From an uncultured Prolixibacteraceae bacterium (GTDB taxonomy: Bacteria; Bacteroidota; Bacteroidia; Bacteroidales; FEN-979), in contig CAZSDU010000001.1 of NCBI GenBank assembly GCA_964605775.1, positions 102,741 to 166,740 of the forward strand: a stretch of 64,000 nt of DNA. The letters are read 5' to 3'. Both the position numbers and the translations under genes were made by a program. The notes beneath the pieces were generated by a model. That model did no database searches. It was not told where the DNA came from and saw only the letters and a list, made by a program, of their open reading frames with translations. Shown piece after piece: positions 42,197 to 63,515 of this stretch (within the stretch, counting starts at the first letter, position 1; every line of letters begins with the position of its first letter).

Positions 42197-45100
42197 CTAA
42201 TATTTGATCATTGGAATACAGTACATCCCGGCATTGCCGGTGGTGAAAACTTTCATCAGGTAATGACCCTCCGACAGGTTCTCTAAGGGGATGATCGTCT
42301 CCAACACAGCATTCAGGGAAAAATCGGCTACTTTTAATCCCAGGACATTGATCAGGAGTATCCTGTTCATGGGCATCGTGGATTTCACCCGGATCTGATC
42401 CCGGGCGGGATTGGGGTAAACAGTGAGTGGTCCATCATACTGCTTTCCCAAGGAGGTAATCACATCCACTTCAATGGTATCGGAAGCTGTGGCTTCGTTG
42501 CAGGTATTGCCGGTAGTCTGAATATAGTAACGATACAAGCCGTAAGGGAGTCTGAAGTCAATGAAGGCCGTATCGGTCAAAGGCTGGGAATTGGCTTTGA
42601 CATAAACCCCGCCGGCAGGGTCCTGGCGGTAAACGTCATATAAGATCGGAGGGGTAGTAAATTCCAGTTTTTGTCCCCCCAGGGTACAGTCGTCTATCCC
42701 CCAGTAATACCACAGACCCTGTCCGCCGTTGTCGGTGGCATGCCAGGCCAGGTCAACCACATCCCCCAGGTAGGATGACATATTAATCATATAAGGATGT
42801 TGCCATTGATTATACCCGCCGGGTCCCGGGAAGGGAGGAAGGGCGGAGAGGTCCATCAGTACATCCCAGCTATTGCCCTGGTCGGTGGAAACCTTGACAT
42901 AGTAATGGTCATCATGGGCTGATCCCTGATAGGCGAGACTCCAGAAGCTGAGGTTGCCACCCACATAGACATTTTTAGCGATAAGCCATTCGTCCTGATG
43001 GTTATAGTCCCAGTATAATCCTGCGGAATAATTCCCGGAATGCACGCCAATCGGTGGGGAGATACCTGTATGCGTCCAGCTTGCCCCGGCATTATGCGTG
43101 ATCTGAGACCAGCCCGGGGGAGGAAATTCTTCTCCCTCAAACCCTTGCTGAAGAATATTTCCTCCTCCGCTGCATTGGGGAGGGCTCCAGGAGAGATGAA
43201 TATCATCACCCCAGGCTTCGCCGTAAGGATCAGTGGGTGGCAAACAAACAGCATAAACAGCAATATTATCCACCAACCACGTACTGATGTTGTCGGAATT
43301 ATTTCCGCCGGCAATGAAGCGAAAACGAAAGCCTTTTCCTTTCACCACGCTGATATCGATATGCTGAGTAATCCATTCGATATTGCCCGAATTGCTGAAT
43401 TCGGCTTTTTGATGCCAGGTGTTATTGTAAAAAACCTCTGCGGTCAGCTTTTCATTTCCGTTAGCTGTTTTATCCAGGAGTTTCAGGTCGAAATCCATCC
43501 AAATTTTTGCGCAGTTATCCGGTGTTGCATCCAGGACGGGACTTTCGAGGGCAAAGGAATAAAGCTGATGGTTGGGAGATCCCGTAAAAACGGCTGAGGG
43601 AAGAGGGTTTCCCTCCTCCTGACTGATCACCCAGTTTCCCTGCTGACCGTTGAAACGCCATTCATTATAGGTAAAAGACCCCTGATTCCAGGGTTCATTA
43701 AAAGGCAGTAACCTTCCGTAATGAATCATGACCGATACCGGTCCAGCGGGCATCGAATGGTCTTCCTGACCGGGATGTCCATAAGTGGTAAGGTCATATA
43801 AAGCATCCACCGTATAGGAATAGTTGCCGGGTTCCAGATTGACATCATAAAAGGAGAGGTTATCGTTCCCCGGAAGATAGATAAGAAAACTGCCGTTTCT
43901 ATAGATGTTGTATCCTTTGATTCCTTCGGGCATTACCGGGCCTGAATCCGAGGGCATGGTAGGTTCGTGCCAGCTCAGGTAAACGGTATTTTCAAGGATT
44001 TCGGCATTCAGTTCGGTGGGAGGCCAGAGAAAATGTGACGTTAATGCAGCGCAGACCTGTTCGGAATACCCGCTGGTATAGATGGCCCTGACGCATGCCT
44101 GATAAGTGGAATCGTAACGGACCAGGGATCCGTCTATGGTATAATGGTTATCGTTGACCAGGGCAAGCAGGGTGTTATCAAGATAAAAATTATAGCCAAA
44201 AATACAGGGAGCCAGGAGGTGGGCGGATTCTGAAGCCGTGATTAGGATATTATCAATATACCAGCCGTTGATCTGGTAAGAATCTTGCCCGAATGCCCGG
44301 AAACGGATGTTAAAGTGGGTGTTGGAATAGGCAGAAATATCGATGACATCGGTGGTCCAGGGGATGCTGCCGCCGGCATTGGTCCATACTTTCAGGGTAT
44401 GCCATGAAATTCCGTCGTAAATCTCTATGGCCATCTGGTTGAGCGCCGCCGTGGAATAATTATCCAGGTTGATTTCGTATTGCAGGGTCATGATGGGACT
44501 GTTCTGACCTTCTACCATCCGGCTGGTCAGCGATTGTTCATAGTTGGGAACAGGAGGGGACCAGCTAAAAAACGCGGAGGGTGCAGGATGACCTGCCGTC
44601 ATGGAAATCCTCCAGTTGATCCCTCCTTCTCTTACCCAGCCCCCGCTCAGAAAATCGCCGCTGTTAAAGTTTTCCTGCAGCAGGGGAAGGGAATAAAACG
44701 GTTCATCCCAGACCGCGTGAAGGCTGACACTATCCACGACCAGGTTAGTGGGCGGGGATTTGATCTGAAGCAGAATGATATCGAGGGATAAAGGGGTATT
44801 GACAGAGCAAAACCCTGAATAGGTAAGATAACCAAACTTCATCGCTTTGACTTCATAGGACCCTTTCCATACGCCGGGGAAAACGACCTGGCCGCTGGGA
44901 TTGCAAACCCCCTGGTAAACGGTATCCTGATAGACCTGATTCGTCAGGGTGATGAGGGTTCCTTCGGGGTCGGCTGCTGCACAGCTCAGGCTAAGGTTGA
45001 TGTTAACCGGAGCTGTCCAGCATTTTCCCAGTACATTAGAGAAAGTCGGTTCTGACCATCGGTTACCTGTATAACCCGTCTTTACACACCAGCGGTGAGG

Positions 45101-46168
45101 GCCGCAGGGCAGGGCCGGCCAGGAAGGGTCCACCGTCTCGGTGATGTTCACGCTACCCAGGAAAACCCAAGCCATGGGGTTCAGTTCTTCACCCTGATGC
45201 AACCTCCATAATTGATAGCCTATCAAGCTTTGTTCGCCGGAAGTGAGGTCCAAAGGCCCGCCAGTACCTGATACCAGGGCACGGATCATGAAATTCCCTG
45301 CTGCCGGTACCCAGGGTTGGTTTCCCGTGACTGCTTTAAAATAACTGCGGTATTGAGGGAAAGTCACATCAATGGCCAGTCCGGCTGCATTGGGAGCATT
45401 TCCACCCTGTATCATGGCAATGAAGAAGTTCCCTGCTGCAAGGCTTACCGGAGACGGAAAGGTAAAATCTATCCATCCCAAAGCGGCGGGGATCACATCA
45501 AAGGGACCCGCGATCACATTTCCGGGTGTACCTCCCGTTCCGTTTCCATCCAGGATGATCACCTGGAAAGGGACCAGGGGATTACTTCCCGGTGGATAGT
45601 TGGAGGCGTTTCCAATATTGATTTTACATCCTTTAACCAGAACAGGATATCCCACTGGCGTAAATTTCACGGCATTCATGTTTCCCGCCTGGGACCATAC
45701 GGTAAAATTATCCTGCAGGCCATCGTCATAGATCAGTTCGTATGTTCCTTCGGGTTGGCCCCAGGAGAGATAGACTCTCTGGTTGGCCGTATCCATCACT
45801 GCCGATAATAGCGGTGAAGGGTTGGGGGTTTCCCATAAAGTAATATTGAGGGTAATGATGTTCCCGGACTGAAAGGTTACGGGATCAGAAGTGAAAGGGT
45901 CAAAGCCGGCTTTTGATGCGTTCACCGGAAAAACGCCTAAGGGTTGAATGTTAAGACTGTAAACTCCGGCGGTAACCGAGTACGTGGAAACACCGTTGAC
46001 CGTTATCCTGGCACCGATCACGGGATGTCCGGTGGTGGCATGGGTTACGGTACCCACCAGGGTGGCGGAGGACAGAAATCCGGTTTGCGAAAAAAGAGGA
46101 AAACCAGTTAAAAACAAAAGTCCCCAAAAAAGGATCTGAAAATAATATTTTATTTGTGATGGATTCAT
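42197..46168 (-). CDS. large T9SS adhesin-like protein 3 (headless paralog with cleaved-adhesin/choice-of-anchor-J-like tail)
   Basis: Clear homology to the core of genes 1/2 (ELIYDDG..AGNMNAVKFTP, KYTGNRWS, GKCWT); tail QGFEGEEFPPPGW...QDEWLI...YYVKVSTDQGNSW; VYPNP CTD; start ATG at 46168. Confidence 0.82.
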   Translation of the reverse strand: MNPSQIKYYFQILFWGLLFLTGFPLFSQTGFLSSATLVGTVTHATTGHPVIGARITVNGVSTYSVTAGVYSLNIQPLGVFPVNASKAGFDPFTSDPVTFQSGNIITLNITLWETPNPSPLLSAVMDTANQRVYLSWGQPEGTYELIYDDGLQDNFTVWSQAGNMNAVKFTPVGYPVLVKGCKINIGNASNYPPGSNPLVPFQVIILDGNGTGGTPGNVIAGPFDVIPAALGWIDFTFPSPVSLAAGNFFIAMIQGGNAPNAAGLAIDVTFPQYRSYFKAVTGNQPWVPAAGNFMIRALVSGTGGPLDLTSGEQSLIGYQLWRLHQGEELNPMAWVFLGSVNITETVDPSWPALPCGPHRWCVKTGYTGNRWSEPTFSNVLGKCWTAPVNINLSLSCAAADPEGTLITLTNQVYQDTVYQGVCNPSGQVVFPGVWKGSYEVKAMKFGYLTYSGFCSVNTPLSLDIILLQIKSPPTNLVVDSVSLHAVWDEPFYSLPLLQENFNSGDFLSGGWVREGGINWRISMTAGHPAPSAFFSWSPPVPNYEQSLTSRMVEGQNSPIMTLQYEINLDNYSTAALNQMAIEIYDGISWHTLKVWTNAGGSIPWTTDVIDISAYSNTHFNIRFRAFGQDSYQINGWYIDNILITASESAHLLAPCIFGYNFYLDNTLLALVNDNHYTIDGSLVRYDSTYQACVRAIYTSGYSEQVCAALTSHFLWPPTELNAEILENTVYLSWHEPTMPSDSGPVMPEGIKGYNIYRNGSFLIYLPGNDNLSFYDVNLEPGNYSYTVDALYDLTTYGHPGQEDHSMPAGPVSVMIHYGRLLPFNEPWNQGSFTYNEWRFNGQQGNWVISQEEGNPLPSAVFTGSPNHQLYSFALESPVLDATPDNCAKIWMDFDLKLLDKTANGNEKLTAEVFYNNTWHQKAEFSNSGNIEWITQHIDISVVKGKGFRFRFIAGGNNSDNISTWLVDNIAVYAVCLPPTDPYGEAWGDDIHLSWSPPQCSGGGNILQQGFEGEEFPPPGWSQITHNAGASWTHTGISPPIGVHSGNYSAGLYWDYNHQDEWLIAKNVYVGGNLSFWSLAYQGSAHDDHYYVKVSTDQGNSWDVLMDLSALPPFPGPGGYNQWQHPYMINMSSYLGDVVDLAWHATDNGGQGLWYYWGIDDCTLGGQKLEFTTPPILYDVYRQDPAGGVYVKANSQPLTDTAFIDFRLPYGLYRYYIQTTGNTCNEATASDTIEVDVITSLGKQYDGPLTVYPNPARDQIRVKSTMPMNRILLINVLGLKVADFSLNAVLETIIPLENLSEGHYLMKVFTTGNAGMYCIPMIKY

Positions 46169-46268
46169 ACGCTCCCTACAAAAATACAAAAAGCAGGGTT
46201 GAAAAAGACTTTTTCATGCTTTTAAGGTTCTTTTTTTTCGGAAAAACTTGCCAGAATGAAAATTTTTA

Positions 46269-50809: not shown

Positions 50810-51940
50810 TTACTGATAAAATGCTGAGATTTTTTTGCAGATAAAATTTATCTGAGCGTTTTTGAGTTTATAGAAGAAAGGTAATCTTAGCAGGCAGTTG
50901 CTGAACGTATCGGTATTGGGTAAAGCCCGGCCACTATATTTTTCTGAGAGATAGGGACTGGAATGCAAGGGAAAATAATGAAAAACGGCATGGATTCCAT
51001 GATTTTTCAAATCGTTAAGTAAACGATCTCTTTCTTCCCGGGTATGTGTCACCATATAGAACATATTGCCGTTGACCGTAGCAAACTCAGGAATCACGGG
51101 ACATTTCAGATATCCTTTTGCTTCCAGCGGCTGTAGTCTTTCATAATACCGCCACCAGATTTTCCGGCGATGCCGCTGGATGTCATCAAGCCGGGACAGT
51201 TGTGTATATAGAATTGCGGCAGTGGTATCTGAGGGCAGAAAAGAAGATCCGATATCGACCCAACGGTATTGATCGATTTCACCCCGGTAGAAAGCAGCGC
51301 GGTTAGTACCCTTTTCCCAGATGATCTCTGCTCTTCCTGCATCTTCCTGACGATTGATTACGAGCATCCCGCCTTCTCCTGAAATGATATTTTTTGTTTC
51401 ATGAAAAGAAAAGGTACTGTAATCGCCAAAGGAACCCAGGGGACGTCCGCGATAATAGGAATCAAAAGCATGAGCGGCATCTTCAATGACTTTAATGCCA
51501 TGTTCCCCGGCAATCGCCATGATCCTGTCCATTTTACAGGCCAATCCGCTGTAGTGAACCACCACGATCAGCTTCGTCCTTGGCGTGATCAGCCTGGAAA
51601 TCTCTTCGGGATCTATATTGGGGACATCTGAGAGTGTATCCGCAAAAACCAAGCTGGCTCCCCTCAGCAAAAAAGCATTGGCGGTGGACATAAAGGTGAA
51701 GGAAGGAAGAATGATCTCATCCCCGGGTCCGATCCCGGAAAGCAGGGCCGACATCTCGAGGGCATCGGTACAGGAAGTGGTCAGCAGTACCTTGCGGAAT
51801 CCAAAACGATTTTCCATTACACGATGACATTTTTTGGTGTAAGGTCCGTTACCGGATATGTTGCCGGAAATGGCGGCGAGCGCCAAATTCTTGATGGTCA
51901 ATAGGGGAAAATAAGGCTTATTGAAAGGGATATGGCTCAT
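50810..51940 (-). CDS. wecE: dTDP-4-amino-4,6-dideoxygalactose transaminase (WecE/RffA family)
   Basis: TSCTDALEM, PSFTFMSTANAF, EDAAH, SFHETKNIISGEGG, EKGTNR. Confidence 0.9.
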   Translation of the reverse strand: MSHIPFNKPYFPLLTIKNLALAAISGNISGNGPYTKKCHRVMENRFGFRKVLLTTSCTDALEMSALLSGIGPGDEIILPSFTFMSTANAFLLRGASLVFADTLSDVPNIDPEEISRLITPRTKLIVVVHYSGLACKMDRIMAIAGEHGIKVIEDAAHAFDSYYRGRPLGSFGDYSTFSFHETKNIISGEGGMLVINRQEDAGRAEIIWEKGTNRAAFYRGEIDQYRWVDIGSSFLPSDTTAAILYTQLSRLDDIQRHRRKIWWRYYERLQPLEAKGYLKCPVIPEFATVNGNMFYMVTHTREERDRLLNDLKNHGIHAVFHYFPLHSSPYLSEKYSGRALPNTDTFSNCLLRLPFFYKLKNAQINFICKKISAFYQ

Positions 51941-51968: not shown

Positions 51969-52032
51969 TATGAAATTCAGCTGGAATTATTTTACTTTTG
52001 TCCGCAATTTTGACTTTCATTTCCTTCATCCT

Positions 52033-53352
52033 TTGGCAAAAAGAACTTACCTCCGCGATATCCTTAGCATTTTAAGCAGTAACCTAATGGCTGCATGCTG
52101 CAACCTGGCCATAGGAATCATCTTGTCGAGGCTGTTGGGTGCAGCCGGTTATGGTTTATATTCCGCCATTATCGTGGTACCCATGATCGTGATCGGATTT
52201 ACCCAGTTAGGTATCAAACGGTCCACGATTTACCACATTGGAAATAAGCTACTGCCGGAAGATCATATTGTATCTGCTCTTTTCATTCTGCTGATTTATA
52301 CCAGTGTTTTGAGTATTCTCATCTGCGGACTGGTCTATTTTTTTTCCGCCACCCAACCCTTCGACCCCCTGATCGTAGTGTTTGTGCTGCTCACCATTCC
52401 GCTTCTTTTGACGAATGTATATGCCGGAGGCGTTTTCCTGGGGAAAGATGAGATCAGGCGGGCAAGTATCGTCAATGCCGGGCCTACCATCCTTATCCTG
52501 GTCTTCACCATTATTTTTGTATGGGTATTTCCCCTTTCGGTACTGGGAGCATTTTTAGCCATTCTGGTGGCAAATATCCTGATGTGTTTTTATAATTACC
52601 ATGTTTTCTTCAGGGTGTATCAGTACAGAATTACCTGGAAATACCATGAATCGCTCATTAAAAGCATGATCAAGCTGGGGTTGGTTAATGCCATGGCTGT
52701 TTTTATCATGCAGCTCAATTATCGCATGGATATCCTGATGCTGAAAAAACTCTCTTCGCTGGAGGAAGTTGGGTTTTATTCCCTTGGGATGCAGATCGCC
52801 GAGCAGCTTTGGCATATTCCCTATGCCATCGAAACGATCATTCTCAGCCGTTCTGCCAATTCCAACAACGATCAGCAAATCAACCGTACGGTAGCCTCAA
52901 TTTTCAGGGTTTCCCTGATCCTTGGCGTAACGGGAGGAATACTGATTTTTTTCATTGCTCCGTTGTTAATTCCTCTGATTTTTGGGAAAGCATTCATCCC
53001 AAGCGTCACCATGATCCAGGTGGTGCTTCCCGGGGTACTTTTCCTCGTAGGATTCCGAATCCTGAACAGCAGGTTGACGGGAATGGGGAAACCTCAGGTT
53101 GCGATATATGCTTTTCTTCCGGCCCTGGTCATCAATTTCATTGCCAATCTGTTCCTGATACCCCGCTTTGGCGGAATAGGGGCAGCCTGGGCCACCAACA
53201 TCAGTTACGGGATTGGCTCCCTTGCGTTTATCCTGGTCTATTCCCGTCTGTTGAAAATACCTTTGACCGAAATTTTAAGGATCAGGAAAAGTGATTTTTA
53301 TTTCATCCGTGATTTTAAAAAGATTCTTTATGAAAAACGAAGATCTAAGTAA
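52033..53352 (+). CDS. Wzx-type polysaccharide flippase
   Basis: About 12 TM; SRLLGAAGYGLY, YRMDILML..EEVGFYSLG, IPRFGGIGAAWAT; probable TTG start at 52033, downstream of TACTTTTG at 51993-52000. Confidence 0.88.
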   Translation: MAKRTYLRDILSILSSNLMAACCNLAIGIILSRLLGAAGYGLYSAIIVVPMIVIGFTQLGIKRSTIYHIGNKLLPEDHIVSALFILLIYTSVLSILICGLVYFFSATQPFDPLIVVFVLLTIPLLLTNVYAGGVFLGKDEIRRASIVNAGPTILILVFTIIFVWVFPLSVLGAFLAILVANILMCFYNYHVFFRVYQYRITWKYHESLIKSMIKLGLVNAMAVFIMQLNYRMDILMLKKLSSLEEVGFYSLGMQIAEQLWHIPYAIETIILSRSANSNNDQQINRTVASIFRVSLILGVTGGILIFFIAPLLIPLIFGKAFIPSVTMIQVVLPGVLFLVGFRILNSRLTGMGKPQVAIYAFLPALVINFIANLFLIPRFGGIGAAWATNISYGIGSLAFILVYSRLLKIPLTEILRIRKSDFYFIRDFKKILYEKRRSK

Positions 53353-54454
53353 GATACCCATTTTTTTTATCTTCGGACGACCCCGTTCCGGGACTACCTT
53401 ACTCACCACCCTTTTCAATGCGCATCCGAACATACGGATTGCACCGGAATTCCCGATCATGCTTTTCCTTTACCAAAAGTTCAGAAAAGTAAAAAATTGG
53501 GACGAAGCGACCATCAGGTCATTTATTGAACATGCCTATTACAATTCCAAATTCAATTACAGAACCCTTGAAAATCTGAAGATCGACAAGGAAAACCTCC
53601 TGGGGGACCTCATGAAATACCAGGGAAAAAATGATGTCAGCGTCTTTCTGAAAAGCATTAATTACCATGCGTTTTCGCTGTTTAAAAAAGAAGAGACGCT
53701 TTGGATTGGGGATAAAAACCCGATTTATTCCATCAATGCCCACCGCTTCCGCAAAATCTTCCCTGAAGCAAAATTCATCTGCATCATAAGGGATTACCGG
53801 GATAATTTTATCTCTATCCGCAAATTGGCGGAAAAGCAGGTGGAAGTTGAAGCCCCTGTATTGGATCTCCAGGTTGCCAGATGGCGTTTTTTTACCCGTC
53901 TGTTTTTTCAATGTCAAAGGAAATACCCGGATAAATATTATATCCTCCGTTATGAAGACCTGGTGACGGATCAGGAGAAAACCTTTCGTTCACTCTGTGA
54001 ATTCCTCGGCATTGTCTATGATCCGGCGGTTTTTGATTTTCACCGGAAAAAAGAAGAAACCCTGAATACTTATGGGAATGTGATCTGGGAGAAATTCCAT
54101 GAAAACCTGCTGAAGCCGATCCATACCGGAGGCATGAATACCTGGCAGAATGAGCTTACTCCAGCCCAGGTCAGGATGGCTGATCAGATCGCCGGAAAAT
54201 ATGCGGATCAGTTGGGATATCCGAGAGGAAACAAGCGTTTAAATGTTTGGTTGTTTCTGAAATCCAGACCCATGGTGGCCTACAATTATATCCTGCTGAA
54301 CCTGATGGTCTTTGGCACTTATCTGCCCTACAAAGCAAGTCGTTGGTGGTTTTTTAAATCCCTGATATTGCTTAAGATCTATATGCGATTCTTTGGCAGG
54401 AAAAAAGTTCCTATTCCCCATCCAGATGGTCCGCAACCAGCCTCCGGTCGTTGA
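53330..54454 (+). CDS. PAPS-dependent sulfotransferase
   Basis: 5'-PSB motif GRPRSGTTLL, GDKNP, 3'-PB IRDYRDNFIS, RYEDLV; start ATG at 53330. Confidence 0.88.
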   Translation: MKNEDLSKIPIFFIFGRPRSGTTLLTTLFNAHPNIRIAPEFPIMLFLYQKFRKVKNWDEATIRSFIEHAYYNSKFNYRTLENLKIDKENLLGDLMKYQGKNDVSVFLKSINYHAFSLFKKEETLWIGDKNPIYSINAHRFRKIFPEAKFICIIRDYRDNFISIRKLAEKQVEVEAPVLDLQVARWRFFTRLFFQCQRKYPDKYYILRYEDLVTDQEKTFRSLCEFLGIVYDPAVFDFHRKKEETLNTYGNVIWEKFHENLLKPIHTGGMNTWQNELTPAQVRMADQIAGKYADQLGYPRGNKRLNVWLFLKSRPMVAYNYILLNLMVFGTYLPYKASRWWFFKSLILLKIYMRFFGRKKVPIPHPDGPQPASGR

Positions 54455-56117
54455 AATTACCGTTGACATAGCGCTGCATCAGTTTAAACCGCTGGAGTTT
54501 GCCACTGGATGTTTTGGGGATTTCATTTGATTTAACCAGGATCAGCTCATCCATGGTGATCCCCAGGTTACTGCGCAGCAAAGCCCTGAGTTTCCGAAAA
54601 ACCTCCCTGGATTTTTCCTGATGAAGACCAGCCACAAAAGCGATCACTTTATCCTGTCCTGTCTCCCTGGCAGTCGTTCCTCCGAAACAGATCTTCCCGA
54701 AGTCGATTTCTTCCAAGGTGCAAGCCATGGCTTCGAGATCGTTGGCGAAATAATTGCGTCCATACTTAAAAATGATGTCTTTATAGCGTCCGCTGATATA
54801 TAATCGACCTTTATAGAAGAACCCGATGTCACCGGTTCTGAGCCATTCCCCGCAGAATGCAGCTTCCGTGGCTGGCGGATTGTTGTAATACCCCCGGGTA
54901 ACGCCGGCGCCCCTCAACTGGATATGACCCGAATTCCCTTCCTGAACGGGCTGATCATGCTCATCCGTAATCCGTATTTCGACTTCATTCAGCGCAAGGC
55001 CGACCTCGGAGAGTATCCTTGCCTCCGGATCTGAGGGATCCACCTCCCTGACCCGGTTTTCCGTATCCAGCAACATTGCATCAAAGGCCTTTATCTCCGA
55101 TGGTTCCATCAGCGGAGTGAAAGAAACGGCAAGCGTAGCCTCTGCCATCCCATAAACCGGCATCATCGCCTCTGGTCTGAACCCATATGGCTGAAGCACT
55201 TCCATGAATTCCTTCATGATGGTCACGGAAATGGGTTCGGCCCCATTAAGCAGGGCTCTCATGGCAGAGAGATTCCAGTCGGCCACAGGATTTTTCCGAT
55301 GAAAATAGCGTAAAAATAAAGCCAGTCCAAAGTTGGTACAACCAGAAATCGAAACCTTATGCTGACTCATTAAATTCAGCCATAAACCCGGATTCATTAT
55401 AAAATCATACGTTTCAATAAGGTATTGATATGATAGTGAAAATAAAGGGGTCAGATGATATCCTATTAAACCCATGTCATGGAAAAGTGGCATCCAGTTA
55501 CCGATATGATCAGGAAAGTGTAAATCAAGACCGATGCGTATGGCTTCCATGTTCACTATCAGGTTGGCGTGAGTGAGCATAACTCCTTTAGGCTCCCCTG
55601 TGCTTCCGGATGAAAACTGAATAAAAGCCAGATCATCGGGATTCAGCTTAGGTTTGGGATAGACCGCCTTTACCTCCAGGTCATTCTTGTGCTTGATTGT
55701 TTCCCGAGGTAACACGTCGGTATCCAGAAAATCCAAACTTAAAAAAACATAGGGTCTTCCGAGTTGTTCAAAAATATTCAACAGTTTCACAACCGGAGGG
55801 TTATATCCTGAAAAGGTCATGGGGGGCTGAAGAATGGTTGGGATAAGCCCAAGCAGAAAACAACCCCAGAGCAATTCAACCGTTTCCCGGTTATTGTTAA
55901 GGGCAAGGATCACTTTATCCCCCTGCCTGAGCCCGAGGGCATACAATCCGCCCGCCAACTGTTCGGCTTCGGTCAGTAAATCTTTCACATTCTGAATTTC
56001 GAGTTCCCCGTTTTTATCGGAATAGGCGATAAACAAATCCGGGTGTTTACGAATGGCCCTGTAAAGAATATCCGGTAAGGTGAGTTCAGCTTTGTAGTAT
56101 GCAGTTGGTAAAGGCAT
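54411..56117 (-). CDS. fatty acyl-AMP ligase-like adenylation enzyme
   Basis: FIQFSSGSTGEPKGV, WMPLFHDMGLIG, PVYGMAEATL, LRTGDIGF, KTSSGKLQR. Confidence 0.88.
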   Translation of the reverse strand: MPLPTAYYKAELTLPDILYRAIRKHPDLFIAYSDKNGELEIQNVKDLLTEAEQLAGGLYALGLRQGDKVILALNNNRETVELLWGCFLLGLIPTILQPPMTFSGYNPPVVKLLNIFEQLGRPYVFLSLDFLDTDVLPRETIKHKNDLEVKAVYPKPKLNPDDLAFIQFSSGSTGEPKGVMLTHANLIVNMEAIRIGLDLHFPDHIGNWMPLFHDMGLIGYHLTPLFSLSYQYLIETYDFIMNPGLWLNLMSQHKVSISGCTNFGLALFLRYFHRKNPVADWNLSAMRALLNGAEPISVTIMKEFMEVLQPYGFRPEAMMPVYGMAEATLAVSFTPLMEPSEIKAFDAMLLDTENRVREVDPSDPEARILSEVGLALNEVEIRITDEHDQPVQEGNSGHIQLRGAGVTRGYYNNPPATEAAFCGEWLRTGDIGFFYKGRLYISGRYKDIIFKYGRNYFANDLEAMACTLEEIDFGKICFGGTTARETGQDKVIAFVAGLHQEKSREVFRKLRALLRSNLGITMDELILVKSNEIPKTSSGKLQRFKLMQRYVNGNFNDRRLVADHLDGE

Positions 56118-56144
56118 AAGAGATCATTCAAAAAGGATTGAACT

Positions 56145-56198
56145 GCAAAGTAACGGATTTTTGTCTATATCTCTTTCTCGGGAAAATTCTTACATTTG
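56145..56198. promoter_or_regulatory. divergent -7 elements for FAAL1 (minus, TACTTTTG 56145-56152) and ACP (plus, TACATTTG 56191-56198)
   Basis: Two TAnnTTTG matches in a 100-bp divergent spacer. Confidence 0.55.
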
Positions 56199-56217
56199 CG
56201 CCAAAATTTGATGCCCC

Positions 56218-56466
56218 ATGAAAATTGAAGATTTCATCGCCCAACTGGAAGAAGAATATGAAGATATCAAACCCGGGACGCTTAGCCCTGAAAGTGTCTT
56301 CAGGGAAATTTTTGAATGGAGTTCCATCAACGCGCTCATCTTGATTGCCCTGGTAAAAACCCAGTACGATGTAACGATCAATGCTGAAGATATTGCCAAA
56401 TCCGTGACCATAAAAGACCTTTTCGGAATTATCCAGGAAAGGGCCCAAAAAAATCAACCGGTTTAA
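56218..56466 (+). CDS. acyl carrier protein
   Basis: 82 aa, acidic; FEWSSINALILIA (Ser attachment site), KSVTIKDLF. Confidence 0.85.
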   Translation: MKIEDFIAQLEEEYEDIKPGTLSPESVFREIFEWSSINALILIALVKTQYDVTINAEDIAKSVTIKDLFGIIQERAQKNQPV

Positions 56467-58508
56467 TTTTCCACTATCAGTTTCCTCCCTTCTGCTGCCA
56501 TCTGAAGGATGGACATCTCTTCGAAAAAAAGATAGGGTGGCCATTCAAATCCAAAAGTGGTTTTCGTCAGTTCAGTCAGTTCAAGCGCTTTTAAAGAATC
56601 TATCCCATAAGCAGCCAGGCTGCTGTCGGGGTTTATGGGGTTACCCTCATTCAGTCTCAATGTCACCCAATGAATAAGAAATTGTTCCAGGTTAAGGGGC
56701 TGATCGCTGAAAAAATCTGTCTGAGGTATTTCTCTTTCCGGAAAAAAACGCTCGGAGATAATCTCTAATTGCCCCTTGCACAGTGCTTCCCGAACGGCCT
56801 TTCGCATGATTTTGCCACTTGAGGTTTTCAGGATTGCTCCGCTCCGGATCAGGGTAACGCGTGCAGGTTGGATTTCGAATTCCCGGGAAACGGCTGCCAG
56901 GATATCAGCCATGATCTTATCGTGATCCTGTGGCAGAATGGAACGGCGTAACTCTGCTACGAGGGCAAGTCTTTCTCTTCCGTTTTCTTCAACGGAAAAA
57001 GCGGCGGTACATGTTTTTCGTATGGCAGCATGGGCTTCTTCCACCACTGTTTCAATGTCCTGGGGATAAAAATTGCGGCCCCGGATAATGATCAGATCTT
57101 TCAGTCGCCCCGTAATAAAAAGCTCTCCTTCATGGAGAAAACCCAGATCCCCGGTACGCAGCCAAACCGGTTCATCCTGTCCGGCAGGGCTTGCCCGGAA
57201 AACTTCCTCAGTCAGCTGAGGATTGTTATAATATCCCAGGGCAATGGTGCTTCCACTCCCCCAGATTTCGCCTACACGGTCTTCCGCAAGGATTTTCTTT
57301 GTTTCCGGATCAACGATGAGAACAACAGTATCAAGGCTTGTTTTACCGTTTCCGGTAATGATCCTGACATCCTCTTTTCTATCCCCTTTGCTGATCTTTT
57401 TCACCTGGTGCTGCCCAAGGGCTGAAGCCTGTATTTCCAGGAAATGAGGAACACGGGTTACATCAGCCACGGTAAGGATAAGGGTGGATTCTGCCATACC
57501 ATAACCGGGAGTAAAAGTTTCAGGTCTCAGGCCGCAGGGGGAAAAGGCCTCCAGGAAAAGATCCAGCGTTTGTTTTCTTACAGGTTCGGCGCCACTGTAA
57601 AGCACCCGGAGAGAAGACAAATCCAGGTTTCTTTTCCGGGCCTCCTCAATTCTCCCGACACAATGAAGGTAGGCGAAATCCGGTTGACCGCTCAGTGTAG
57701 CGTGATGGCGTGTGATGGTTTGCAGAAGGCAGATGGGGTCGGCAATGAAATCGAGGGGAGAGATCAAAACGGAGGATGAGCCGGAAAAAACAGTTTCCAG
57801 GATCCCGAAAACCAATCCGAGGTCGTGAAACTGAGGCACCCAGTGCACGGCTACGTCTGCCGGGGTGATTTGAAATAAAATCTGCAGTGAGCGCAGGTTA
57901 TACATTATATTCCTGTGACTCACCATCACCCCTTTGGGTTGTCCTGTCGAACCGGAGGTATATTGCAGGAAGGCAAGGTCTTCAAATCCGGGTTCAAAGG
58001 AATGACTTTCCACGGCTGTTCCTGACAACCAGGAATTTGTATCCATCCATGTCAGGCTATTCAGCAGGGGATCAGAAGAAAAATTTCTTTCCATGGAGCG
58101 GATTATCGTTTCTGTGGTCAAAATAGAAACAGCGCTGCAATCAGAGATGATGGCATGTATCCTTTGCAGGGAACGATTTTTTTTGGGAGGATAGGCAGTC
58201 ACGGGAATGACGGAGGCATAGAGACATCCGAAAAAAGCCAGAATAAAATCCAGCCCGGCAGGGTAGAACAACAGTACTTTTTTCCCTTTCAGTCCATGTT
58301 CTGTAAGCTTCATGGCGATATTCCGGGCGGAGGCATCCAGCTCCCCGTAGGATATGGAAACTTCTTCTTCTTTCCCGTCCACCAGAAAAGAAAAGGCATT
58401 TTTTTCCGGATGTAAGAGGGAACGTTGCTTCACGACAGAAACAAGGCTTGCCTGATGGGGAACCAAATGAAGGTCTCCGGGGACGGGCGTTGGTGTGATC
58501 AAATCCAT
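56463..58508 (-). CDS. fatty acyl-AMP ligase fused to a C-terminal carrier domain (FAAL-ACP)
   Basis: FLQYTSGSTGQPKGV, WVPQFHDLGLV, PGYGMAESTL, LRTGDLGF, GRNFYPQDIE, KTSSGKIMR; C-terminal YGIDSLKALEL. Confidence 0.92.
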   Translation of the reverse strand: MDLITPTPVPGDLHLVPHQASLVSVVKQRSLLHPEKNAFSFLVDGKEEEVSISYGELDASARNIAMKLTEHGLKGKKVLLFYPAGLDFILAFFGCLYASVIPVTAYPPKKNRSLQRIHAIISDCSAVSILTTETIIRSMERNFSSDPLLNSLTWMDTNSWLSGTAVESHSFEPGFEDLAFLQYTSGSTGQPKGVMVSHRNIMYNLRSLQILFQITPADVAVHWVPQFHDLGLVFGILETVFSGSSSVLISPLDFIADPICLLQTITRHHATLSGQPDFAYLHCVGRIEEARKRNLDLSSLRVLYSGAEPVRKQTLDLFLEAFSPCGLRPETFTPGYGMAESTLILTVADVTRVPHFLEIQASALGQHQVKKISKGDRKEDVRIITGNGKTSLDTVVLIVDPETKKILAEDRVGEIWGSGSTIALGYYNNPQLTEEVFRASPAGQDEPVWLRTGDLGFLHEGELFITGRLKDLIIIRGRNFYPQDIETVVEEAHAAIRKTCTAAFSVEENGRERLALVAELRRSILPQDHDKIMADILAAVSREFEIQPARVTLIRSGAILKTSSGKIMRKAVREALCKGQLEIISERFFPEREIPQTDFFSDQPLNLEQFLIHWVTLRLNEGNPINPDSSLAAYGIDSLKALELTELTKTTFGFEWPPYLFFEEMSILQMAAEGRKLIVEN

Positions 58509-58515
58509 TTCGGGG

Positions 58516-58561
58516 CAAAATTAGAAAAAATCGGATTTGATAAAAAAAAACAGTATTTTTG
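58516..58561. promoter_or_regulatory. divergent -7 elements for FAAL-ACP (minus, TAATTTTG 58516-58523) and KAS III (plus, TATTTTTG 58554-58561)
   Basis: Two TAnnTTTG matches in a 92-bp divergent spacer. Confidence 0.55.
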
Positions 58562-58600
58562 CTTAGTTCATCATTCCGGAAGAATCAACAGAAGCTCATA

Positions 58601-59674
58601 ATGGCAATTTTCGAAGTATCTGATGTACGCATTGCCGGTATTTCGGCATGTGTTCCCAAGAAAATCTCCTCCAATCATAATTATAACTGGATTACGCAAA
58701 AGGAGCGCGATCTTCTGATCAAGACCATAGGTGTGGAAACCCGTCATAAGGCTGCAGCGGGGCAAGCCTGTTCCGATCTCTGCCTTCAGGCTGCTGAACA
58801 ATTGCTTGAACGCCTGGGATGGGAACGGCAGGAGATCAATCTGCTGATTTTCGTTTCCCAGTCGAGGGATTATATCATTCCCTCCACTTCTGCTATTCTT
58901 CAAGACAGGTTAAACCTATCCACGCATTGTATGACCCTGGATATTAATCTCGGATGTTCCGGTTATGTTTACGGACTTTCCGTGATCACCAGCCTGATGA
59001 AGACCACCGGTCTCCGGAAAGCATTGTTGCTGGTCGGGGATATTTCCACCCTCACTTCTTCCTACCGTGATAAAAGCACCTTCCCACTTTTCGGTGATGC
59101 CGGAACGGCAACCGCACTGGAGTTGAAAGAGGGAGCTCCTGGGATGCAATTCAACCTGCAGACCGATGGAAGCGGATATGAAGCCATCATCATTTATGAC
59201 GGGGGCGTCAGGAATTTTCCCAGTAAAAAATCATTTATTTTTAAAAAGTACGGGGAAGGAATTTATCGAAACCGCTTACAGGTAGCGTTGAACGGGATTG
59301 AGGTATTCAATTTCTCACTCCGTGAGGTCGTTCCCAACATCAAGGCTACCCTGAGCCATTTCAACCGTAGTCTGGACGAGTTTGACTATCTGGTATTCCA
59401 TCAGGCCAACCGTCTGATCAATGAGACCATCCGGAAGATGCTTAAAGTTGTCCCTGAGAAAGTCCCCTATTCGCTGAAAGATTTCGGTAACACTAGTTGC
59501 TCTTCTATCCCTCTTACCATCGTTACCCAGATCAGGAATGAGGTGGAAAACAAACCCAAGAAACTCCTGTTTTCAGCTTTCGGAATCGGTTTGTCGTGGG
59601 GAAGCGTGCTTCTGGAAACCGATGGCATAATGGTTCCGGAACTTACGGAACAGGAGTATATTCCTAACGTCTGA
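58601..59674 (+). CDS. ketoacyl-ACP synthase III (FabH-like)
   Basis: Cys-His-Asn triad: [19 protein letters not shown]; LFGDAGTAT; start ATG at 58601. Confidence 0.92.
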
Positions 59675-59679
59675 CAAGT

Positions 59680-60414
59680 ATGAATGCATTTGATCTGAGC
59701 GGAAAAACAATCCTGGTCACCGGCGCCTCTTCCGGGCTCGGAAGGCAAACAGCCATCAGTGTTTCCCAGCACGGCGCCAGGCTGGTCATCACTGGAAGGA
59801 ATGTAGAAAGGCTGAATGAAACTTTTATGTCGCTAGAGGGTGAAGGACATCTTCAAATGACCGCTGATCTCACGGTTCAGGCAGATATCGACCAACTGGT
59901 GGCCAAGCTCCCTCCTCTTCATGGACTGGTTCACAGCACCGGTATATCCGATATGACACCGGCAAGATTCATTACCAGTGAAACCATTTCGAGAACCTTC
60001 CGCATCAGTTTTGATGCAATCGTCCTTTTAACTGCTGCTATTCTGGGAAAGAAAAAACTGGTCAAGGGGAATAGCTCCATTGTGTTTATTTCTTCCATTT
60101 CCACGCGATATCCTTTCATTGGCGGGGCCATGTATGTCAGCGCCAAAGCGGCCCTTGAAGGCTTTTCAAGGGTTCTCGCCATGGAACTCAATCCGCGGGG
60201 AACCCGGGTGAACTGCATTGCTCCTGCCCTGGTCAGAACCCCCATGATGGATGAAACGGCTGAAAACTATTCTGAAGAAGTCATCAGGCAGATTGAAGCG
60301 CGTCAATTACTTGGCCTCGGAGAACCTATTGATGTGGCCAATGCCATCATATATTTCCTTTCGGATGCATCAAAGTGGGTGACGGCCGGTCATCTGATTT
60401 TAGGAGGAGGTTAG
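59680..60414 (+). CDS. SDR oxidoreductase (FabG-like)
   Basis: [24 protein letters not shown]. Confidence 0.9.
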
Positions 60415-60415
60415 C

Positions 60416-61360
60416 ATGAACAATAGTAAAAACCCTGAGTATTCCATTGTGGTACCGGTTTTCAACAGCAGTGAATCGCTGGAGGAACTGTTCCGGAGGA
60501 CTGCCCAGACCATGCACAAACTGTCAAAGTCATTTGAGGTGATCTTTATCGACGACGATAGTCAGGACGACAGTTGGAGCAAGCTGGAAACCATCCGTAA
60601 CACCCATCCGGAAAAAGTTACGGCCGTACGCCTTGCCCGCAATTTCGGCCAGCACAATGCCACCATTTGCGGCATTGCACAAGCGAATGGGGAATATATC
60701 ATCACCATGGATGATGATCTTCAAAACCCACCGGAGGAAATGGCCAAACTGATCACCACCATGGATGCCGGCCAGGCCGATCTGGTCTATGGTATCTATG
60801 AGAAAAAGAAACATTCCATGGCACGCAACCTGGGCAGCAAAGCGATGAAGGTAACTTCCAGGAGACTGTTCCGCAACAAAGGCAAAGGGTCTTCTTTCCG
60901 CCTGATGAAAGCCTCACTGGGGAAATGCCTGCTTAAACATCAGATAAACTTTATTTATATTGATGAATTGTTTAACTGGTACACCAGCCATATTGGATTT
61001 GTGATGGTTGACCATCAGAAAAGACCCTACCAGAAATCAACCTATAGTTCCCGTTCCCTCTTTTCCATGTTCTCCAACCTGGTAATTTATTATACGGCCA
61101 TCCCATTGCGTATCATGGTTTACGGAGGGTTCATTTCCGCCCTGCTGAGTTTTATTTTCGGGCTGGTATTCATCTACCGGAAAATCGTCCATGACGTACC
61201 CCTGGGGTTTACCGCCCTGATCGTCGCCATCCTTTTTTCCACCAGTATTATCCTTTTATCTCTGGGTGTCATCGGAGAATACCTGAGCCGTATCTATACG
61301 GTTCAAAATAACAAACCCCCTTTTTCCATTAAAACAATCCTCCGCCATGAAGTTCTATAA
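60416..61360 (+). CDS. GT2 polyprenyl-phosphate glycosyltransferase (GtrB/ArnC-like)
   Basis: SIVVPVFN, IDDDSQD, LARNFGQHNA, TMDDDLQNPP, two C-terminal TM helices, GVIGEYLSRIY. Confidence 0.9.
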   Translation: MNNSKNPEYSIVVPVFNSSESLEELFRRTAQTMHKLSKSFEVIFIDDDSQDDSWSKLETIRNTHPEKVTAVRLARNFGQHNATICGIAQANGEYIITMDDDLQNPPEEMAKLITTMDAGQADLVYGIYEKKKHSMARNLGSKAMKVTSRRLFRNKGKGSSFRLMKASLGKCLLKHQINFIYIDELFNWYTSHIGFVMVDHQKRPYQKSTYSSRSLFSMFSNLVIYYTAIPLRIMVYGGFISALLSFIFGLVFIYRKIVHDVPLGFTALIVAILFSTSIILLSLGVIGEYLSRIYTVQNNKPPFSIKTILRHEVL

Positions 61361-62051
61361 ATACGGTATTACCCTGGAAAGACTGAAAGAAGAAGACATT
61401 GAGCTGGTCAGGCAATGGCGGAATTCAGACCCGGTAAGGCTGAACATGAAATACCGTGAAATCATCACGCCTGAGCAACAAAAAGCCTGGTTCCGTTCCA
61501 TCGACAACCTGAATTTCCACTATGTGATCATTCAGTACCAGGGTGAAAAAATCGGATTGCTCAATGACAAGAACATTGACTGGCAGAACCTGACCTCTGA
61601 AACCGGGATCTTTATCGGAAGGCCTGAATTTTACCATACTTTTGTCCCCTACCTGGTATCCATTGCCGGAATAGAAACCTTTTTTTATCTGATCGGTTGG
61701 AAAAAACAATATGCCCATATCCTGCGTAGCAATGCGAATGCCATCCAATATAATCTCGGGCTTGGATACAGGCTTTGCGAAGGTCAGGAAGGCATCGAAC
61801 ACCAGCGGTATGAGATTACCCGTGAAAGTTTTGAGCAGACAGCCGGAAAAATCAGGAAAATGGTCAGATCTGTTGCCGGAAATGACATTAGAAGCAGCAT
61901 GCTGTTTGAACCTCCCGATTATCAAAGCGGCATTGCACAGAAGTTCGAAGCTTTATTTCTGAACAATCATCTGCCTCATCAGCGCAAGGAGACTGCTGAA
62001 GGAGTATGGTATATGGAATGGGATGAAAATGTGACCCCTCAGCCTCACTAA
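61347..62051 (+). CDS. GNAT N-acyltransferase (PseH/RimJ-like)
   Basis: LERLKEEDIELVRQWRN, EQQKAWF, NANAIQYNLGLGY. Confidence 0.8.
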   Translation: MKFYKYGITLERLKEEDIELVRQWRNSDPVRLNMKYREIITPEQQKAWFRSIDNLNFHYVIIQYQGEKIGLLNDKNIDWQNLTSETGIFIGRPEFYHTFVPYLVSIAGIETFFYLIGWKKQYAHILRSNANAIQYNLGLGYRLCEGQEGIEHQRYEITRESFEQTAGKIRKMVRSVAGNDIRSSMLFEPPDYQSGIAQKFEALFLNNHLPHQRKETAEGVWYMEWDENVTPQPH

Positions 62052-62063
62052 TGCTCTCCGGCA

Positions 62064-63515
62064 ATGCTTTTCAATTCGATCGGATACCTGCTTTTTCTTC
62101 CTGTCACGGTTATCGTTTATTATTTTTTACCCTCTCGTTGGCGCCGGATCTTCCTCCTGGCCGCCAGTTATATTTTTTACCTCTTCTGGAAGGTTGAATT
62201 CGTTCTGGTATTGATGGCTGCCACCCTGGTTTCGTATTTTGCCTCCAGGCAAATGGGGCTGGTCCAACGCAAGAAAAAAAGGTTGAAGTACCTGGTTTTC
62301 GTTCTGGTTATAAACCTTGGAATGCTGTTCGTATTCAAATACCTTTTCTTTTTTACTGATCTCCTGAGCGAGATGGCCGGGATTGCCGGGTTCAGGATAA
62401 GTATTCCGATGATGAATATAATCCTGCCTGTCGGGATATCGTTTTATACTTTCCAGACCATTGGTTATGCCGTTGATGTTTACCGGGGGGTGATCAGACC
62501 TGAGCAAAATGCCGGGGTGTATGCCTTATTCGTATCTTTTTTCCCCCTGGTGCTGGCTGGTCCTATTGAAAGGGGGAGGAATCTGATTCCCCAGCTTCAT
62601 CTGAAACACAACTTTGATCCTCAACTGATCAGTTCAGGCCTGAGGCTGATCTTATGGGGAATGTTCAAGAAAATTGTCATCGCCGACCGGCTTTCCACCA
62701 TTGTTCAGCCGGTTTTTATGGAACCGGGATATTTTCATGGGATTGAGATCGTATTTGCCATTGTTTTAAAGATCATGCAGGTCTATGCTGATTTTTCAGG
62801 GTATACTGATATCGCCATCGGTTCGGCCAGGTTGCTGGGGTTCAGGCTGAGTCCCAATTTCAAGCGTCCCTTTGCCGCTCAATCCATCGCTGCTTTCTGG
62901 AGCCGATGGCATATCTCCCTGACTTCCTGGTTGAGGGATTATGTGTATTTCTCCCTGCCTTTCATGTTTCGTGGTAAAACCGTAGCATGGCGAGTTCACC
63001 TGAACCTGCTCTTCACTTTCCTGTTGGTGGGATTCTGGCATGGTCCTTACTGGAATTTTCTTATTTTCGGATTATTGCATGGTTTATTTATCATTCTGGC
63101 CAATATTTTCAAGCCGATGATGATAAATTTCAACCGGATCAGCAGTCTGGACGGAAAACCCGGGCTGCTGAAAGGATTGAACATCACCTGTACATTCCTG
63201 CTGGTGTGTTCCACGGGGTTTTTCTTCGGATCCCATCCCCTCAACGAATCCCTGATCATGATCAGGAACCTCTTTGATTTCAGTCATAGCGGAACTGCTT
63301 TGAAACTGTTGTTCGCGAACAATGATCTGATCCTGGGAATCCTCTTGATTATTTTTATGCTTTGGTTTGAATACCTGATTGCCGTGAAATCCCTGGCTGT
63401 GAAATTTTTAAGCAAACCCATTGTCCTAAGGTATACCGCTTATCTTTTCATGCTGTTTTTCCTGCTTATATTCGGGATCTTTTCAAATCAGCAATTTTTC
63501 TATTTTCAATTTTAA
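62064..63515 (+). CDS. MBOAT O-acyltransferase (AlgI/DltB/PatA-like)
   Basis: LPVGISFYTFQ, FFPLVLAGPIER, DFSGYTDIAIG, FWSRWHISL..WLRDY, GFWHG catalytic His. Confidence 0.95.
   Translation: MLFNSIGYLLFLPVTVIVYYFLPSRWRRIFLLAASYIFYLFWKVEFVLVLMAATLVSYFASRQMGLVQRKKKRLKYLVFVLVINLGMLFVFKYLFFFTDLLSEMAGIAGFRISIPMMNIILPVGISFYTFQTIGYAVDVYRGVIRPEQNAGVYALFVSFFPLVLAGPIERGRNLIPQLHLKHNFDPQLISSGLRLILWGMFKKIVIADRLSTIVQPVFMEPGYFHGIEIVFAIVLKIMQVYADFSGYTDIAIGSARLLGFRLSPNFKRPFAAQSIAAFWSRWHISLTSWLRDYVYFSLPFMFRGKTVAWRVHLNLLFTFLLVGFWHGPYWNFLIFGLLHGLFIILANIFKPMMINFNRISSLDGKPGLLKGLNITCTFLLVCSTGFFFGSHPLNESLIMIRNLFDFSHSGTALKLLFANNDLILGILLIIFMLWFEYLIAVKSLAVKFLSKPIVLRYTAYLFMLFFLLIFGIFSNQQFFYFQF

Follow-up and report, generated by a model that had tools for sequence, protein, structure and literature searches.

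A conserved Bacteroidales locus that probably makes a lipid-carried amino sugar with hydroxyacyl and sulfate groups for the cell surface

Introduction

What does a sulfotransferase (ST) act upon when its gene lies among genes for loading, extending and reducing a fatty-acyl chain, within what looks like a glycan locus? This question is raised by a 64,000-nucleotide stretch of DNA (the whole of which is called the window here) from an uncultured Prolixibacteraceae bacterium (GenBank assembly GCA_964605775.1, contig CAZSDU010000001.1, positions 102,741 to 166,740), in which a fatty acyl-AMP ligase (FAAL) fused to a carrier domain, a free acyl carrier protein (ACP), a condensing enzyme of the 3-oxoacyl-ACP synthase III type (KAS III), a ketoreductase-like short-chain dehydrogenase/reductase (SDR) and an ST are encoded by separate, adjacent genes at 53330-60414. 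An earlier note on this DNA saw in this set a parallel, made of discrete enzymes, to the cyanobacterial olefin synthase (Ols) and to CurM, and proposed that the ST may sulfate a 3-hydroxyacyl-ACP which is then transferred intact, with sulfation of the glycan itself offered as an equally plausible alternative. The domain order of Ols is FAAL-ACP-KS-AT-KR-ACP-ST-TE (PMC11730487), where KS is ketosynthase, AT acyltransferase, KR ketoreductase and TE thioesterase.

We report here that these genes probably form the middle of a conserved Bacteroidales locus for decorating surface glycans, whose product would be an amino sugar that bears hydroxyacyl and sulfate groups and is carried on a lipid. The reading that we tentatively favour, with confidence a little short of even, is that a polyprenyl-phosphate-linked N-(3-hydroxyacyl) 4-amino-6-deoxyhexose is sulfated and then flipped across the membrane.

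Conservation of the locus

The gene set is not a chance juxtaposition but a conserved Bacteroidales locus. The cluster was found in more than 100 loci from Prolixibacteraceae, Lentimicrobium and related metagenome-assembled genomes (MAGs), with a conserved core of wecE, a MOP flippase, one or two STs (at most four), a GNAT-family protein, an ArnC-like family 2 glycosyltransferase (GT2), the SDR, the KAS III and the ACP, to which a PMT_2/TPR glycosyltransferase of the GT-C type is often added. Synteny was retained in 12 of 12 relatives, where mtnA/serS and ksgA flank the locus just as they do here. The core was constant in 20 loci from other families of the order, and most of 78 public-genome loci, whose titles name Prolixibacteraceae, Draconibacterium, Lentimicrobium or Bacteroidales, kept the arrangement. 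The FAALs are accessory, as are a membrane-bound O-acyltransferase (MBOAT) and the 329 amino acid DltD-like protein that goes with it, the latter pair being missing from about half of the loci.

Co-composition was counted in the 43 loci that have a complete core: 17 of these have two STs without FAAL or MBOAT, 13 are of the window's own type (one ST with FAALs and MBOAT), 6 have one ST and a FAAL without MBOAT, 5 have a single ST but no FAAL and no MBOAT, and the last 2 combine two STs with a FAAL, an MBOAT being present in one of them. When 301 genomes sampled evenly across the order were searched, the ST was present in 41 and an orthologue of the KAS III (E<=1e-120) in 36, with both in 35, so that 35 of the 36 genomes having the KAS III orthologue also have the ST. 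About 12% of the order's sampled genomes carry the system, and these are mostly uncultured anaerobes of sediments, lakes and digesters. Our search of the literature yielded no description of this cluster, nor of undecaprenyl-linked sugar sulfation in these taxa.

The sulfotransferase and its C-terminal tail

The ST gene (53330-54454, +) encodes a protein of the type using 3'-phosphoadenosine 5'-phosphosulfate (PAPS), with a Sulfotransfer_3 Pfam match above cut-off (E 1.9e-31). Its open reading frame (ORF) opens at 53291, and Met14, at 53330, agrees with the starts of the orthologues and was taken as the start, which leaves an overlap of 23 nt with the 3' end of the flippase gene (51970-53352, +), whose MOP/Wzx-like product matches the Polysacc_synt_3 and MurJ Pfam families and has about 8 hydrophobic segments. 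The GRPRSGTT loop for the 5'-phosphosulfate, the RDYRD..S motif for the 3'-phosphate and Glu40, which aligns with the catalytic Glu99 of the tyrosylprotein sulfotransferase (TPST) TPST2, are all invariant and hence the enzyme is probably active, judging by these motifs. Homologues number more than 1000, and the nearest 120, at 52-78% identity, are from MAGs of Bacteroidales or Bacteroidota. The label in the protein atlas is 'sulfotransferase' and nothing further, and the sole NCBIfam model touched is NoeE, over the PAPS loop only. Two more Sulfotransfer_3 genes occur elsewhere in the genome (C9:78397-79140, -, and C3:166012-166758, +), too divergent to be detected in a search with the window ST at E<=1e-20.

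If the ST were an activating enzyme of the Ols/CurM kind, a specific affinity to those STs could be looked for. By sequence, the matches of the window ST in the PDB run from TPST1/2 (E ~3e-17) through the OLS ST 4GOX (3e-14) to the CurM ST 4GBM (8e-9); a profile built from 20 members of the ST family scored TPST1 at 117, TPST2 at 105, CurM at 95 and OLS at 85 bits against PDB chains; and a Foldseek search with the AlphaFold2 (AF2) model of the ST (pLDDT 82) placed the TPSTs at the top, with OLS and CurM following at ranks 14-15 and identities of 18-23% throughout. The ST family thus appears, from these comparisons, to belong to the TPST/CurM branch of Sulfotransfer_3 with no special affinity to the activating STs. 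Among longer proteins that contain an ST (656-2000 aa) there was no fusion to a polyketide synthase (PKS), and only B12-radical-SAM-ST, TPR-ST and GT-ST fusions and one weak fragment of a non-ribosomal peptide synthetase, C-PCP-ST, were found. One such protein, P0125 (787 aa, from a metagenome), is a relative of the ST at 33% identity fused to a B12-binding radical SAM enzyme.

In the AF2 model the C-terminus of the ST folds into a hairpin (residues ~306-355), both of whose helices have many aromatic and aliphatic side chains; its turn, LP(Y/F)(K/R), is conserved, and its end is basic. This tail is retained in paralogues down to ~30% identity, and it may well be a monotopic membrane anchor.

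Association of the sulfotransferase with the flippase

Gene neighbours were counted in 116 dereplicated loci. The flippase adjoins an ST in 76 of the 84 loci holding both, and the neighbours of the ST genes were the flippase (66), GNAT (50), FAAL (27), wecE (15), the DltD-like protein (13) and MBOAT (11), with the ACP and the SDR counted once each and the KAS III not at all. It could be argued that the ST acts on a soluble dTDP-N-acyl sugar, or on a cytoplasmic precursor of the finished glycan, and that the hairpin serves only for localisation or oligomerisation, since the hydrophobicity of the hairpin is moderate and cytoplasmic STs have been reported from sulfated capsule loci (PMC11641403). 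We consider this improbable, however, as the pairing of ST and flippase is tight and the triads of GT2, ST and flippase described below share only membrane-enzyme partners.

Loss of the ST is informative in this respect. Genus g7, of the same family, retains the syntenic order ksgA-GT-C-(FAAL)-ACP-KAS III-SDR-GT2-GNAT-wecE...mtnA (loci L141 G007:C71 and L142 G018:C2), but its two genomes (97% and 94% complete) have neither ST nor flippase, and the gap between GNAT and wecE is only 189 bp. From this co-loss, ST and flippase appear to form a cassette of two genes, and the acyl module has no need of the ST, whereas in Ols sulfation is required for release.

Relatives of the ST also occur without any acyl module. 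In a complete genome lacking the KAS III orthologue, a tailed ST (33% identity) lies between a PgfS/ArnC-like GT2 and a flippase-like LPG_synthase_TM protein, and the same GT2-ST-LPG_synthase_TM triad is found in two other families, one of them with extra STs, GNAT, a left-handed beta-helix (LbH) acyltransferase, WbqC and DegT, but no ACP, KAS or SDR. Two further genomes have a grouping of GT-C, ST and MOP flippase, again with no ACP, KAS or SDR. In the ST tree (midpoint-rooted, so that its root is not established) these relatives are basal and the window ST lies in a derived clade, the tandem STs being lineage-specific duplicates; there are 1-4 such tandem paralogues per locus as against a single ACP/SDR set. 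The triads were located at L038 8780-11703 (genome G281), L127 2014-4914 (G219) and L128 (G306), and in G281 two arylsulfotransferase (ASST) genes adjoin. The idea that ST copy number tracks KAS III copies, and hence acyl hydroxyls, was also considered and was dropped as inconsistent across loci.

These results bear directly on the proposal that the locus is a discrete Ols/CurM-like line, in which the ST would sulfate 3-hydroxyacyl-ACP and the 3-O-sulfo-acyl group would pass intact to the glycan. The adjacency of the FAAL, ACP, KAS III, KR and ST genes speaks for it, as do the fused FAAL, whose closest relative among solved structures is that of Ols, and the significant sequence and fold relationship of the ST to those of CurM and OLS. 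However, the TPSTs score above the CurM/Ols STs, the ST carries a conserved hairpin, presumably membrane-bound, that the CurM/Ols domains lack, and is paired with the flippase gene, its genes almost never adjoin the ACP, KAS III or SDR, it is lost along with the flippase in genus g7 while the acyl module stays, basal members of its family have no ACP context at all, there is no TE in the locus, and many complete loci have no FAAL. A beta-sulfated thioester is moreover prone to elimination, which is the very use that CurM and Ols make of it. The acyl-ACP substrate put forward in the earlier note is thus very improbable, and its alternative of glycan sulfation is the better reading, which can be refined to the lipid-linked stage.

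Where the sulfate is placed

We favour sulfation of the lipid-linked sugar because of the ST tail, the flippase pairing, the co-loss in genus g7, the acyl-free relatives, the ST copy number and the apparent lack of a special affinity to CurM/Ols STs. The closest competitor is that the ST sulfates the beta-hydroxyl of the N-acyl chain, and does so only once that chain is on the sugar (dTDP- or polyprenyl-phosphate-linked), giving a stable sulfated hydroxy-fatty amide. The product of the KR has a 3-OH available, the CurM/Ols STs, which sulfate that position, are of the same Pfam family and fold as the ST, the ST and the KAS III orthologue occur together as described above (35/36 genomes), and the membrane tail and the pairing of ST and flippase fit equally well. 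On the other side, same-tail relatives of the ST are found with an ArnC-like GT2 and a flippase and without a hydroxyacyl module, up to four ST paralogues accompany one ACP/SDR set, and the scores of the ST show no specific affinity to the CurM/Ols STs over the TPSTs; we judge this course of events to be rather unlikely.

Several points weigh against sulfation of the lipid-linked sugar as well. Gene order and co-loss would agree as well with sulfation of the acyl beta-hydroxyl, whatever the stage, since such a product would need a flippase too; the evidence thus fits the ring hydroxyl and the acyl 3-hydroxyl alike, and a sulfate retained on the acyl chain therefore keeps about a quarter of the probability. 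The hydrophobicity of the ST tail is under the transmembrane (TM) level (maximum 19-residue Kyte-Doolittle value ~1.2-1.6), so its membrane association is presumed, and the triad STs are only ~30-34% identical to the window ST and may have other substrates. The score of the GNAT with PseH is under the curated cut-off, and that its acyl donor is acyl-ACP is a prediction. The threshold for KAS III orthologues (E<=1e-120) was picked after the data were seen, and the loci are phylogenetically related so that the counts are not independent. To our knowledge, no chemistry has been described for any organism carrying the locus.

Taken more broadly, a beta-hydroxyl made by KAS III and KR may be sulfated, whether on the ACP or after transfer, and the sulfate kept, so that the activating sulfation of the Ols/CurM type would have been repurposed as a permanent charge. 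We regard this as rather doubtful but as deserving some weight; if it were true, the surface amino sugar would bear a sulfated hydroxy-fatty amide, with a dedicated flippase for its export.

The acyl module

Pfam and NCBIfam searches found every gene of the acyl set named in the earlier note, which had listed one FAAL where there are two. The stand-alone FAAL (FAAL1; 54411-56117, -) has an AMP-binding match (E 1.8e-53) and belongs to the FAAL subfamily PRK09192 (E 9e-104), and its relatives in the PDB are 6ULW, McyG and EcFAAL. The second FAAL (56463-58508, -), transcribed divergently from the KAS III gene, has AMP-binding and PP-binding Pfam matches and is fused to a carrier domain with the motif GIDSL; its best PDB match is 7R7E/F/G (E 1.7e-132, 446 bits). 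7R7E is listed as the FAAL domain of a PKS of Picosynechococcus PCC 7002 (PMC11837247), which we take to be the olefin synthase of that strain.

Between the two FAAL genes lies that of the free ACP (56218-56466, +), an 82 aa protein with the motif EWSS which matches ACP models in NCBIfam, its PP-binding score of 20.3 bits being just under the cut-off of 20.8; in related loci (dozens) it always adjoins the KAS III. A minus-strand ORF of 138 aa at 56128-56544, lying over the ACP gene, was rejected as spurious antisense: no domain matches it, and its translation looks to be of low complexity. The frame is almost certainly no gene, and automatic annotation could be misled by it. The KAS III gene (58559-59674, +, with a likely start at ATG 58601) encodes a FabH-type enzyme with ACP_syn_III and ACP_syn_III_C Pfam matches, and its Cys-His-Asn triad is intact in alignment to 4EFI (LGCSGY, FHQAN, GNTSC). 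It is followed by the gene for a FabG-like 3-oxoacyl reductase, the SDR (59680-60414, +; adh_short E 7e-41, KR domain E 7e-13, FabG by NCBIfam).

As the earlier note had observed, TE and AT are absent: no TE or alpha/beta-hydrolase domain was present in any ORF from 50.8 kb to ~5 kb past the window, and no Acyl_transf_1 domain was present in the locus. The single FabD of the genome sits on contig C3 and an APS kinase for PAPS is also encoded in the genome; malonyl loading and PAPS supply would therefore not need genes of the locus. Domain searches of the locus also found no FabZ/FabA-type dehydratase, and this could favour a cryptic sulfation in which the 3-OH is made into a leaving group, replacing a dehydratase and giving a 2-enoyl acyl chain, or else the acceptor could be an unrelated one such as protein tyrosine, as the Foldseek matches of the ST include retinol dehydratase and LGS1 (both cases of sulfation-assisted elimination) besides the TPSTs. 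Both are scarcely probable, since the several ST paralogues and the dedicated, co-inherited flippase point to a charged group that is retained, and the glycan context is constant across loci.

For the window, a chain of discrete FAAL, carrier, KAS III and KR enzymes resembling the front half of Ols is plausible, and in this part the parallel drawn in the earlier note stands, with 7R7E as the best match of the fused FAAL; the ST half does not follow it, the ST being flippase-paired, tailed and dispensable in genus g7. A FAAL-led chain is not universal even so, for many complete loci lack FAALs, and in those the KAS III would be primed by acyl-CoA. We considered whether the FAAL-ACP feeds only the MBOAT/DltD-like pair, which would make the Ols-like chain an artefact of juxtaposition, but the co-occurrence table did not support this. 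FAAL genes adjoin ACP-KAS III even in loci without MBOAT, and loci with MBOAT mostly have two FAALs, and it is therefore likely that there are two acyl streams in the locus.

Sugar, carrier and O-acylation genes

The remaining genes of the locus are those expected of a pathway loading an amino sugar onto a lipid carrier. The transaminase gene (50810-51940, -) encodes a WecE-type enzyme (DegT Pfam E 1.2e-85) which matches the NCBIfam model for dTDP-4-amino-4,6-dideoxygalactose transaminase with 500 bits against a cut-off of 375. Downstream of the SDR, the GT2 (60416-61360, +) is an ArnC/PgfS-like candidate polyprenyl-phosphate sugar synthase, matching the ArnC model over its full length (E 2.2e-49), below the equivalog cut-off, and PgfS also over its full length, with two C-terminal TM segments at 229-290. 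Next comes a PseH/WecD-like GNAT (61347-62051, +; Acetyltransf_3), the proposed N-acyltransferase, which scored 52.6 bits with the PseH model (cut-off 93) and for which a search of the PDB yielded no informative relative. Since the WecE cut-off was passed, the GNAT is PseH-like and the GT2 is ArnC/PgfS-like with two TM segments, these sequences suggest that a dTDP-4-amino-4,6-dideoxyhexose may be N-acylated and then loaded onto polyprenyl phosphate.

The accessory pair follows. The MBOAT (62064-63515, +) has an MBOAT Pfam match and is DltB-like (DltB model E 1.8e-45), scoring 156 bits against a cut-off of 375. The 329 aa protein directly after it, as it always is, begins at 63518 (+), has its 5' part up to 64000 in the window and continues to 64507 (L001 259-1248 of the flanking sequence). 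Anchored at its N-terminus, it carries GNSH and DPDH as invariant motifs and matches no Pfam or NCBIfam model, being named by fold search only: with its AF2 model (pLDDT 85) the top 10 Foldseek matches were all DltD (E 1.7e-4, TM 0.39-0.47), followed by SGNH esterases and PatB. Together with the FAAL-carrier fusion, the pair looks like an O-acylation relay of the Dlt type, if the models are a fair guide.

Past the window end there are genes for a DUF4890 protein, a GT-C-type membrane protein with PMT_2 and TPR matches (~11 TM segments; the PMT_2 match is weak, E 3.6e-4), a polytopic protein of 354 aa, and ksgA. The 354 aa protein (L001 3767-4831, -) has seven segments and no Pfam or NCBIfam match, and its gene overlaps the start of the PMT_2/TPR gene (L001 1680-3911, -) by ~145 nt, so the two may be one GT-C gene or a split one. 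Further out, a BglII-type restriction endonuclease gene is followed by an MT-A70 methyltransferase gene (L001 8898-10185, ~5 kb past the window). On the other side of the locus the window has neighbouring ORFs of 1850 and 1816 aa (29543-35095, -, and 35400-40850, -) and a third, of 1330 aa, at 42197-46189.

Comparison with known systems

With Ols and CurM the locus shares FAAL-carrier loading, extension by two carbons, reduction of the beta-keto group and an ST that is of the PAPS type and falls in one Pfam family with theirs. It differs in having discrete type II enzymes (KAS III, FabG-like) and no AT or TE in the locus, where Ols and CurM have type I KS-AT and TE, and in having an ST that is tailed, flippase-paired, dispensable for the acyl module and, by its scores, no nearer to the CurM/Ols STs than to TPSTs; the product expected here is a glycan decoration, whereas that of Ols is a terminal olefin. 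A FAAL-ACP loading didomain is present and the type I KS-AT, the TE and an obligatory ST are not, and the locus is not a member of the Ols/CurM kind.

A precedent in the literature for the acyl module is the O-antigen locus of Flavobacterium psychrophilum, where wfpC-wfpG (KAS, ACP, KAS, KR and a PglD-like acyltransferase) are predicted to place N-3,5-dihydroxyhexanoyl on Qui2NAc4N (PMC6519341). Both loci have a private ACP, KAS III and ketoreductase, and with them an N-acyltransferase and an aminotransferase for the sugar. However, the former is a GNAT here and LbH there, the sugar here is of the WecE type, the carrier route here is by ArnC-like GT2 and GT-C instead of a Wzy repeat unit, and STs, FAALs and the MBOAT/DltD-like pair are added. 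In loci L027, L029, L041, L115 and L061 the ACP is accompanied by another KAS III, divergent in sequence (35-38% identity), which recalls the wfpC/wfpE pair and may point to a second round of extension in those loci.

Three-component polyprenyl-phosphate glycosylation systems (ArnC/ArnT, GtrB/GtrA/GtrC, GacI/GacK/GacL, PgfS) likewise have, encoded together, a flippase, a GT-C and a GT2 of the ArnC/PgfS type whose C-terminus holds two TM helices; here the tailed GT2 and the MOP flippase are found with the PMT_2 and TPR GT-C past the window, syntenic in many loci, the PMT_2 match being weak. We know of no described member of these systems in which the sugar on its carrier is acted upon by an ST or by a fatty-acyl module of the locus's own. 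The rhizobial Nod factor pathway follows the same logic as the locus: NodF (ACP) and NodE (KAS) are private to it, NodA (N-acyltransferase) acylates an amino sugar, NodC is the GT2, and the STs NodH and NoeE sulfate the sugar with PAPS. Homology is at the family level only, and the Nod product is a lipo-chitooligosaccharide that is secreted, where the locus would make a monosaccharide on a carrier. Finally, the Dlt relay (DltA, DltC, DltB, DltD) has in common with the accessory genes a DltB-like MBOAT followed by a membrane-anchored protein whose best fold matches are all DltD, and an adenylating enzyme, here fused to a carrier domain; it differs in that the adenylating enzyme here is a FAAL and not DltA, the MBOAT is under the DltB cut-off and the pair is accessory. 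The locus is thus a combination of known kinds: three-component glycosylation, a private ACP/KAS/KR module for N-acylation, PAPS-dependent sulfation and MBOAT/SGNH O-acylation.

Proposed pathway

From the gene identities, catalytic motifs, synteny, co-inheritance and ST tail that were observed, we infer a pathway with the following substrates, order of steps and site of sulfation. WecE would produce a dTDP-4-amino-4,6-dideoxyhexose, and the ACP, KAS III and FabG-like SDR would produce a 3-hydroxyacyl-ACP, the KAS III being primed by acyl-CoA or, where FAALs exist as in the window, by a FAAL-loaded fatty acid. The GNAT would then move the 3-hydroxyacyl group to the 4-amino group of the sugar, and the ArnC-like GT2 would place the N-acyl sugar on polyprenyl phosphate. 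At the cytoplasmic face the membrane-associated ST would sulfate the lipid-linked sugar, most likely on a sugar hydroxyl, the co-inherited MOP flippase would carry the charged product across the membrane, and the neighbouring PMT_2/TPR GT-C would pass the sugar to its acceptor. Outside the membrane, the MBOAT and DltD-like pair, probably fed by the second FAAL and its carrier, may add an O-acyl group.

Significance

If this pathway is correct, a bacterial sugar would be sulfated while on its polyprenyl-phosphate carrier and would then need its own flippase, and a compact cassette of ST and MOP flippase would be plugged into an ArnC/GT-C-type decoration pathway with a private fatty-acyl module. 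The membrane-associated ST family, with its 1-4 paralogues per locus, would be one for regiospecific sulfation of glycans. Genus g7 provides a natural comparison set lacking ST and flippase, so that the function of the ST is directly testable through such relatives. Since about an eighth of the order's sampled genomes (the ~12% given above) carry the system, it probably marks a common and chemically undescribed surface structure of the Bacteroidales.

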